Source: a virus
Lineage: Duplodnaviria; Heunggongvirae; Uroviricota; Caudoviricetes
Virus record (IMG/VR): IMGVR_UViG_2872164251_000005
Length of the DNA: 24,546 nt
Direction: 5' to 3' (one strand)
The notes beneath the pieces are model-generated. The model saw only the letters and a program-made list of their open reading frames with translations, made no database searches and had not been told where the DNA came from. Positions 21,202 to 21,766 of this stretch are shown piece after piece; position 1 is the stretch's first letter; the number at the start of each line of letters is the position of its first letter. Position numbers and translations under genes: made by a program.

Positions 21202-21766
21202 GTGGAAATTAAAAAAATCATTAATCCCCGTTATACCGAAAGTGGCGCAGTAGACTGTGACGTTTTTTTTTGACGACAGGGACCAGGCAGTCCCCTACAC
21301 AGCCACCGCTGATGATGTCGCACCGACGGGTCAGCGAATCTGGCAGGAACTGCAAAGTGGCAAATGGGGTGAGATAGCCCCATTCACTGTGACACCAGAA
21401 ATGCTGGAAGCGGCCAGAGAGGCCAGACGTCAGGAAATTGAAGCATGGCGCACAGAACAGGAGGCGAAGCCGTTCACGTTTGAATGGAACGGTCGTATCT
21501 GGAATGCTGGTCCCGACTCACTGGGCCGCCTGTCCCCGGTAGTCATGCTGGCAAAATCTGTCACAGCACAAACACATATGGCGTGGAGCGATGCGGATAA
21601 TCAGCAGGTGAAACTGTCGATGCCGGAACTGGAAGAACTGGCGGCAGCAATGGTGCAGGCGCAGGTCGATCGCAACGATGAGATTTATCGCCGTCAGCGT
21701 GAAATGAAAGAGGAGCTGAGCGGTCTGGATGATTTGGCTTCAATTCGGGCGTTTGACGTTAAGTAA
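21202..21766 (+). CDS. Hypothetical phage protein in the tail-fibre-assembly (Tfa) position; frame interrupted at a T9 tract
   Basis: GTG 21202 (GAGGA 7 nt upstream) opens VEIKKIINPRYTESGAVDCDVFF, which stops at 21271-21273 inside T9 (21263-21271). The 169-aa track ORF 21257-21766 continues in the +1 frame. With T8 the two parts form one ORF of about 187 aa. Tfa assignment is by position and size only. Confidence 0.5.

Follow-up and report, generated by a model that had tools for sequence, protein, structure and literature searches.

A T8-to-T9 homopolymer frameshift probably splits a putative DUF4376 tail-fibre chaperone gene in a decaying Shigella prophage

The window analyzed here, a stretch of 24,546 nt of Caudoviricetes DNA (IMG/VR record IMGVR_UViG_2872164251_000005), carries a gene downstream of a tail-fibre gene that is divided between two reading frames at a run of nine T residues. 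We conclude that this division very probably arose by a non-programmed frameshift, in which slipped-strand mispairing extended a run of eight T (T8) to nine (T9) in a decaying Shigella prophage. The gene would then be a “pseudo-pseudogene,” and any full-length protein that leaks from it a by-product. This is a new instance of an already known kind of event, the 8-to-9 homopolymer frameshift.

The frame junction on the plus strand reads GACTGTGACG-TTTTTTTTT-GACGACAGG (in wider context, ...GTAGACTGTGACG TTTTTTTTT GACGACAGG...), with the nine T at positions 21263-21271. The open reading frame that begins at GTG 21202 encodes VEIKKIINPRYTESGAVDCDVFF* and terminates after 23 codons at the TGA at 21272-21274. 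The original prediction had placed the T9 run exactly at the change of frame, and this is confirmed. This 5′ fragment (21202..21274, plus strand, MEIKKIINPRYTESGAVDCDVFF) ends at a TGA made by the frameshift and, within the fused protein, aligns with positions 4-26 of PHROG 1141. An SD-like GAGGAA, read from the sequence, lies at 21190..21195 on the same strand, 7 nt 5′ of the GTG start, and a distant homologue (L004) has its own ATG aligned with GTG 21202. The 3′ part of the gene (21272..21766, plus strand, DDRDQAV...AFDVK, stop codon at 21764-21766) lies in the +1 frame, which is open onward to 21766, and holds the entire Pfam DUF4376 domain; the list of open reading frames starts this frame at GTG 21257, giving 169 aa. 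With one T taken out, the two parts join as a protein of 187 aa. The prediction that a transcript with one fewer U would encode a product of about 187 aa therefore holds, and a gain of two U restores the same frame. The exact 187-aa fused sequence is on record from S. flexneri strain VA-6 (P0002), and a 207-aa version that starts at ATG 21142 is also recorded in S. flexneri (P0016, identical to WP_000551138.1).

The T9 run is the only run of nine T or nine A in the whole window. As a bare run it is statistically unremarkable: shuffled windows contained a mean of 0.30 nine-base A/T runs, and at least one such run was present in 19 of 100 shuffles. Its position is explained by ancestry, as a T8 that codes for Val-Phe-Phe (GTT TTT TTT) in orthologues and paralogs plus one extra T. 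A weak hairpin of five pairs (21246-21259) lies just before the tract, but the fold is no better than that of shuffled sequences (z -1.1), for which reason an intrinsic terminator or hairpin-stimulated slippage at T9 was dropped as a candidate.

Once one T is removed, the protein matches its family as a single collinear polypeptide over its full length, and only then. Residues 1-187 of the fused protein align with positions 4-190 of the 194 in PHROG 1141 (“tail fiber protein,” E 2e-88), and residues 70-175 match Pfam PF14301 (DUF4376; E 9e-17, 61.9 bits against a gathering cut-off of 25). The gene had been described as tfa-like, which fits its position and probable role but not its family: a Pfam scan at E values up to 0.01 returned only DUF4376 and no match to Caudo_TAP (PF02413, the lambda Tfa family). 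Fragments of Caudo_TAP were found elsewhere in paralogous modules (e.g., L006). A PDB sequence search with the fused protein gave nothing significant (best E 0.1).

The DUF4376 gene begins at 21202, directly downstream of the stop codon (21189-21191) of the side tail-fibre gene stf. The latter (19776..21191, plus strand, called as 471 aa) encodes a prophage tail fibre N-terminal domain (PF08400, E 5e-47; phrog_2636) and is the presumed client of the chaperone. The gene order is J, lom, stf, DUF4376, a 59-aa ORF and then a convergent ipaH gene, and the DUF4376 gene directly follows the tail-fibre gene in all modules that we fetched. The conserved 59-aa ORF (21766..21945, plus strand; phrog_7784, E 2e-44) likewise follows the DUF4376 gene in all paralogous modules. 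A terminator-like G+C-rich hairpin of nine pairs, seven of them G-C, followed by a T run (21882..21903, plus strand), marks the end of the tail operon and faces the 3′ end of ipaH. The ipaH effector gene itself (21946..23697, minus strand; LRR and NEL E3 ligase, NEL E 6e-77) is cargo of the prophage remnant, and its size of 1752 bp agrees with that of ipaHd in Table 1 of PMC3299695. Exact look-ups of the 583-aa IpaH and 471-aa fibre proteins returned few contigs because gene callers pick other starts, but they did lead to the genome identical to the window (CP032513.1) and to its T8 paralog. DUF4376 proteins encoded 3′ of the fibre gene in Alteromonas phages are intermolecular fibre chaperones (PMC7289586, PMC10579305). 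By analogy, the gene in the window is probably a DUF4376-type tail-fibre chaperone gene belonging to a lambdoid ipaH prophage remnant of S. flexneri.

The surroundings of the gene are those of a prophage in decay. Three IS elements lie in the window, two of the IS3 family (1088-2388 and 6660-7816) and one of the IS110 family (4263-5459). The antiterminator Q gene (2379-3074) is followed by the IS110 element and then directly by FI, and terminase, portal, capsid and lysis genes are absent between Q and FI. The tail-completion gene Z is truncated by an IS, the tape-measure gene H lies in two pieces (10223-11122 and 11155-13053), and so does gene I (14865-15227 and 15212-15505). Judging from this gene content, the prophage is defective and unable to build particles, which leaves no phage function for selection to protect. 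In other genomes (L048, L050) about 250 bp have been lost from the module, from the 3′ end of stf through the start of the DUF4376 gene. Together with the frameshift in the window, this indicates that the lesions by which the locus decays vary with the lineage.

In order to establish the normal state of the gene, we compared it with its homologues. A search of 5.8 billion proteins returned about 1,800 homologues, and the 120 matches listed are mostly 187-207 aa long with 98-100% query coverage. At the tract position, 76 of 119 clusters have V-L-F and 25 of 119 have V-F-F. In the DNA of three homologues the run at this point is interrupted (GTGCTGTTT in Salmonella, GTGCTTTTT in a soil MAG and GTTTTATTT in E. 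coli GPEC79), and an uninterrupted T8 (V-F-F written as GTT TTT TTT, codons 21-23) occurs only in the Shigella/EIEC clade. The homopolymer thus reflects how this one clade happens to choose its codons and is not conserved as an element. A search of phage collections found only distant homologues (phiP27, Rac-SA53; 77-84% identity), which are uninformative on the tract.

Within the Shigella/EIEC clade, T8 is by far the prevailing length. T8 is present in EIEC orthologues of 94-99.5% identity, whose annotation is that of intact DUF4376 genes, and in the ten complete EIEC genomes that carry the sequence (53 places) the best-matching place is T8 in 10/10. A genome may hold up to 7-8 tail modules with their DUF4376 paralogs. 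We counted tract lengths in three samples that were drawn regardless of tract length. The first, a protein-pattern scan with one genome per species, gave 12 T8 and one T9 among 13 full-length paralogs, located in S. flexneri SFBU1023 and “E. coli” ECMA0423. The second, anchored on the Lom protein, gave eight T8, no T9 and two copies with a deletion, and the third, anchored on the 59-aa ORF, gave T8 in 10/10. Pooled over the three samples, among which a few places overlap, about 30 of 31 copies are T8 and one is T9; several of the T8 records are drafts, whose assembly may have merged near-identical paralogs. Neither T7 nor T10 was present among 43 complete tracts counted, and 10 further tracts were all T8. 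As judged from these comparisons, the in-frame T8 is the ancestral state.

The T9 allele can also be set beside an almost identical T8 copy in a single genome. Over 6.4 kb the window matches CP032513.1 (1204554-1210969) with 100% identity. The same genome has a second J-lom-stf-DUF4376-ipaH module at 720694-727109, which is T8, and over its first 5.6 kb this module differs from the window only in T8 versus T9 and in one SNP (window position 21336, G versus A). This near-identical T8 twin gives the T9 copy the look of a very recent single-base slippage event.

The T9 allele, with the exact gene haplotype of the window, turned up in nine or more assemblies or read sets independent of one another: the complete genome CP032513.1; the NCBI drafts GCA_017105305.1, GCA_014167395.1, GCA_017606665.1 and GCA_000268245.1, which include S. 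flexneri K-1770; and the Logan assemblies, one per run, of ERR592195, ERR592208, ERR592211 and SRR4184827. On this haplotype T9 is represented by the window, L019/L023 and L053-L060, and T8 by S. flexneri VA-6 and three other datasets (L015-L018). T9 occurs on four gene haplotypes in all, that of the window and L005, L007 and L037; two of the latter three differ from the window haplotype at about 21-22 of 545 positions and neighbour T8 haplotypes. Its presence on several haplotypes means that T8 was expanded, or T9 copied through gene conversion, several times. On the evidence of these alleles, T9 is a real, heritable allele and the tract a recurrent mutation hotspot. The proposal of a slippage hotspot at the DNA level is thus upheld, both by the four haplotypes and by the occurrence of the window haplotype in T8 and T9 forms. 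A survey of tract length, the check suggested with this proposal, likewise showed that the T8/T9 polymorphism is real, but with T8 dominant (about 30/31 copies) and T9 sporadic. Gene conversion between paralogs could have spread T9, a point against independent slippage, and the polymorphism on one haplotype could include reversions.

A look-up of the 43-aa “product,” which touched 104 index blocks, was rejected as a sign of many T9 alleles: 7 of the 10 contigs end after eight T. These seven Logan contigs come from different read sets and end exactly after the eighth T, and we did not count them as T9. They would fit a genome that carries both a T8 and a T9 copy, and we do not lean on them.

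The sequence of events that best accounts for these observations would begin with the addition of one T by slipped-strand mispairing during replication, converting T8 to T9. This would place a TGA after codon 23 and shift the remaining 164 codons to the +1 frame. The change would be heritable and restricted to certain lineages, amounting to neutral decay and not to regulation. A minority of transcripts, carrying U8 or U11 through RNA polymerase slippage, should still give the normal 187-aa protein. Such rescue is plausible by analogy with E. coli RNA polymerase, which prefers poly(T) and for which rescue by deletion of a single nucleotide is about 10% at T8 and increases with run length (PMC6260861); from this preference and this rate, a minority of U8 transcripts from T9 can be expected. 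Baranov, Hammer, Zhou, Gesteland & Atkins (2005; Genome Biol 6:R25; PMC1088944) described 8A-to-9A “pseudo pseudogenes,” in which a non-slippery 8-mer is extended to a slippage-prone 9-mer in some isolates only and which may yield the normal product. The gene in the window agrees with this description in that its homologues are single ORFs with an 8-nt run at the site and in that a single mutation is present in some isolates only. The presence of T9 on four non-identical haplotypes is an observation against a neutral frameshift, since it would naively pass the conservation criterion of the same authors for functional use.

Rescue of the T9 allele could instead be mainly translational, through a prfB-like +1 shift at GUU UUU UUU UGA C. 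We regard this as possible but hold it only tentatively, and it is compatible both with the frameshift origin favored above and with RNA polymerase slippage. The tRNA-Phe on the last UUU would re-pair perfectly one base forward, again on UUU, while the ribosome pauses at UGA C, a context of poor termination; GAC would then be read next, yielding exactly the T8 protein. A minority of ribosomes shifting in this way should likewise produce 187 aa. The sequence itself speaks for such a shift, as at 21269-21275 (UUU UGA C) a shifty codon that can re-pair in the +1 frame stands before a poor stop context, and the product would equal P0002. UUU UGA is also among the patterns prone to a +1 shift that are used for frameshift prediction, beside the CUU UGA C of prfB (PMC3500957). 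On the other hand, the region 6-12 nt upstream (GACGUUUUUU) has no SD-like stimulator, and conservation is lacking, as only the mutant allele has the site. The stimulator in prfB is an SD-like AGGGGG upstream of the site, and no GGAGG- or AGGGGG-like element is present in the upstream sequence GACUGUGACGUUUUUU.

It is unlikely that the T9 allele yields an N-terminally truncated protein of 169 aa, made without any frameshift by a start or re-start at GTG 21257 and keeping the DUF4376 domain. The ORF at 21257-21766 is uninterrupted and spans the whole Pfam domain, its GTG overlaps the end of the 23-codon ORF, and gene callers have deposited the 169-aa product for S. flexneri (P0001). Against this, no SD-like motif precedes GTG 21257, and the N-terminal 20 residues are conserved in the family, so that a truncated form may not work.

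The T9 tract had also been put forward as a possible phase-variation site, that is, one at which the T8/T9 length would reversibly switch the chaperone ON and OFF in a population at the DNA level. The part of this claim that stands is the DNA hotspot with its T8/T9 polymorphism; regulated switching we consider very unlikely. Both lengths do occur on one gene haplotype in different S. flexneri isolates (L015-L018 with T8; the window and L053-L060 with T9), T9 arose on at least three divergent backgrounds, and the seven Logan contigs that end after the eighth T would fit T8-G and T9 within one sample. Yet paralogs of both lengths in one genome account for such coexistence within a sample. Of the features expected of a contingency locus, length polymorphism between isolates was found, with only two lengths and T8 strongly dominant, whereas conservation of the tract across orthologues was not: most homologues lack it (the interrupted V-L-F form in 76 of 119 clusters). 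The product, moreover, serves a phage tail that the prophage can no longer make and has no plausible role under fluctuating selection. A homopolymer of 8-9 nt is also short for a classical contingency tract.

We find it highly improbable that T9 is maintained to let RNA polymerase make in-frame transcripts in a fixed proportion, as happens in Shigella mxiE, although several general features would favor this use. T9 is the length at which slippage becomes efficient and is selected against in many bacterial genomes (PMC1088944), poly(T) is preferred for slippage by the E. coli enzyme (PMC6260861), T9 lies on four non-identical haplotypes, and in Shigella slippage on A/T runs is documented for mxiE, spa33 and mxiA. 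Of the signs of functional slippage proposed by Baranov and colleagues in 2005, a run of at least nine A/T at the overlap of two ORFs is present (T9, 21263-21271), but a two-ORF layout and 9-nt run conserved in non-identical homologues are not, given that an in-frame T8 was found in about 30/31 copies sampled blind to the tract. Most of the family has an interrupted run, the genome CP032513.1 also has a near-identical T8 paralog, and the prophage is defective. On these grounds, and with T8 being ancestral and the best copy being T8 in 10/10 EIEC genomes, the suggestion of MxiE-like use is not supported. The analogy also fails in direction: mxiE requires the insertion of one nucleotide (PMC1088944), while the locus in the window requires the loss of one or the gain of two.

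The several modules per genome allow a further, speculative reading, to which we assign very little probability. T8 in the 7-8 paralogous tail modules of ipaH prophages would form a distributed hypermutable switch, in which T9 copies are kept partly active by deletion slippage and/or the +1 shift, tuning the dose of the DUF4376 protein. With a leak of at least 10%, or with some T9-to-T8 reversions, such a switch may operate, and the chaperone dose would then be tuned for, e.g., a tail-derived particle or another host-adopted function of the remnant. Finally, a homopolymer error in the source assembly can be rejected: although long-read and 454 data err most often by homopolymer indels and a region repeated 7-8 times per genome invites mis-assembly, several projects and assemblers yielded the identical T9 allele and haplotype, in no fewer than nine independent datasets.

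The preferred reading, a recent T8-to-T9 frameshift, bears on pseudogene annotation. In Shigella, a long homopolymer where two frames meet mimics mxiE-style recoding, and here the paralogs and orthologues reveal a recent and rare frameshift, which calls for caution. The gene may offer a clean natural case in which the expansion of a homopolymer breaks a gene and at the same time gives rise to a sequence from which the original product can leak. It also illustrates independent decay among the repeated ipaH prophage modules of Shigella: the one here has suffered a frameshift, and in other genomes about 250 bp were deleted.

Several known systems share features with the split gene. The DUF4376 tail-fibre chaperones of Alteromonas phages V22 (gp27) and A5 (gp9) resemble it in Pfam domain and in gene order, the two features on which the comparison is based; the relation is distant. 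With lambda Tfa (Caudo_TAP, PF02413) it shares a place after the side tail-fibre gene and a similar size, but has no sequence-family match. The prfB (RF2) site, CUU UGA C, likewise combines a shifty P-site codon that re-pairs in the +1 frame with a following UGA C; the site in the window lacks the SD-like stimulator, the autoregulatory logic and the conservation, and was created by the mutation itself. The mxiE gene (Penno, Sansonetti & Parsot 2005) comes from the same group of organisms, has a sense-strand T run at the overlap of two ORFs and requires a non-templated change in the number of U for its longer product. In mxiE, however, two ORFs are the normal state, whereas in the gene of the window they are the rare mutant state of a one-ORF gene. 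The pseudo-pseudogenes of Baranov and colleagues have in common with it an 8-to-9 homopolymer change that breaks the ORF, homologues with a single ORF, an allele confined to some isolates and the expectation that RNA polymerase slippage would restore some full-length mRNA. Those cases involve an A run, whereas here it is a T run on the sense strand, in a defective prophage, with up to 7-8 intact paralogs per genome.

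In CP032513.1, the genome that matches the window, a second J-lom-stf-DUF4376-ipaH module is present at 720694-727109 (L024). Over the 5.6 kb corresponding to window 17276-22873, we found this paralogous module to be identical to that of the window except for the T tract that splits the DUF4376 gene, a putative tail-fibre chaperone gene, and one SNP (21336, G/A). The two modules diverge abruptly within ipaH, around window 22874-22950, where the conserved NEL-domain half of that gene has its boundary. Modules of this kind occupy 2-7 places per genome in EIEC and up to 8 in Shigella.

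Another allele of the module was found in CP099865.1 (L048) and CP000036.1 (L050), where approximately 250 bp, equivalent to window ~21045-21290, are deleted. The deletion, whose junction is a short shared motif (CAGTACTCCC / CAGTCCCC), places codon ~30 of the DUF4376 gene directly after the 3′ part of the tail-fibre gene, and the T tract is wholly lost with it. The same module is damaged here independently of the T-tract frameshift.

In RefSeq, intact DUF4376 orthologues are annotated as 207 aa proteins starting at an ATG equivalent to 21142, which produces a 50-nt overlap with the fibre gene. These 207-aa calls are probably over-extended, because in more distant homologues the start codon aligns with GTG 21202, giving 187 aa, and is preceded by a Shine-Dalgarno motif. 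The DUF4376 gene carries a second homopolymer, an A7 run (GAA ATT AAA AAA ATC) at 21211-21217, within codons 2-5. Variation in the length of this run was not seen among the fetched copies; the homologue of E. coli GPEC79 has an A8 at the corresponding place.

The ipaH ORF lies on the minus strand at 21946-23697, with its ATG at 23697, and its 1752 bp equal the size of ipaHd in Table 1 of PMC3299695. Near-identical modules in EIEC have a 1644-bp gene instead, annotated as ipaHe. The paralogous module of CP032513.1 encodes an ipaH product of 587 aa, which corresponds to the 1764-bp size of ipaHa. Approximately 195 nt upstream of the window's ipaH start codon, also on the minus strand, is a MxiE-box-like motif, GTATCGTTTTTTTACAT (23893-23909). 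It has one mismatch to GTATCGTTTTTTTANAG, which we take to be the MxiE-box consensus, and on this assumed consensus 0.13 such motifs per window would be expected by chance. This putative box suggests that the ipaH gene of the window may be MxiE-regulated. The motif includes a T7 run.

The prophage is interrupted by two copies of an IS3-family element, each comprising an HTH_Tnp_1 ORF and an rve ORF (1088-2388 and 6660-7816), and by an IS110-family transposase on the minus strand (4263-5459). Head, terminase and lysis genes are absent between Q (2379-3074) and FI (5723-6124), and the second IS3-family copy cuts off the 5′ end of the tail-completion gene (7722-8351). Two further tail genes are split. 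The two ORFs of the lambda H-like tape-measure gene (10223-11122 and 11155-13053) match positions 22-238 and 360-985 of PHROG 24, respectively, so that an internal piece of this gene is either lost or frameshifted; the second ORF contains an A8 run on the plus strand (12273-12280). Tail assembly gene I is divided into two ORFs that overlap (14865-15227 and 15212-15505), with matches to positions 2-116 and 121-202 of PHROG 32. The gene I split is another frameshift of the same prophage, and the place where its ORFs meet (14865-15505) shows no homopolymer.

The lambda G-like gene has its 3′ end at 9929-9943 (CCG GAA AAG TCC TGA) and is followed by a T-like ORF in the -1 frame. In lambdoid phages, the conserved programmed -1 frameshift between G and T sits at the end of the G gene. 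Where lambda has the heptamer G GGA AAG, the window's G-like gene reads G GAA AAG, a heptamer that does not fit the canonical X XXY YYZ pattern.
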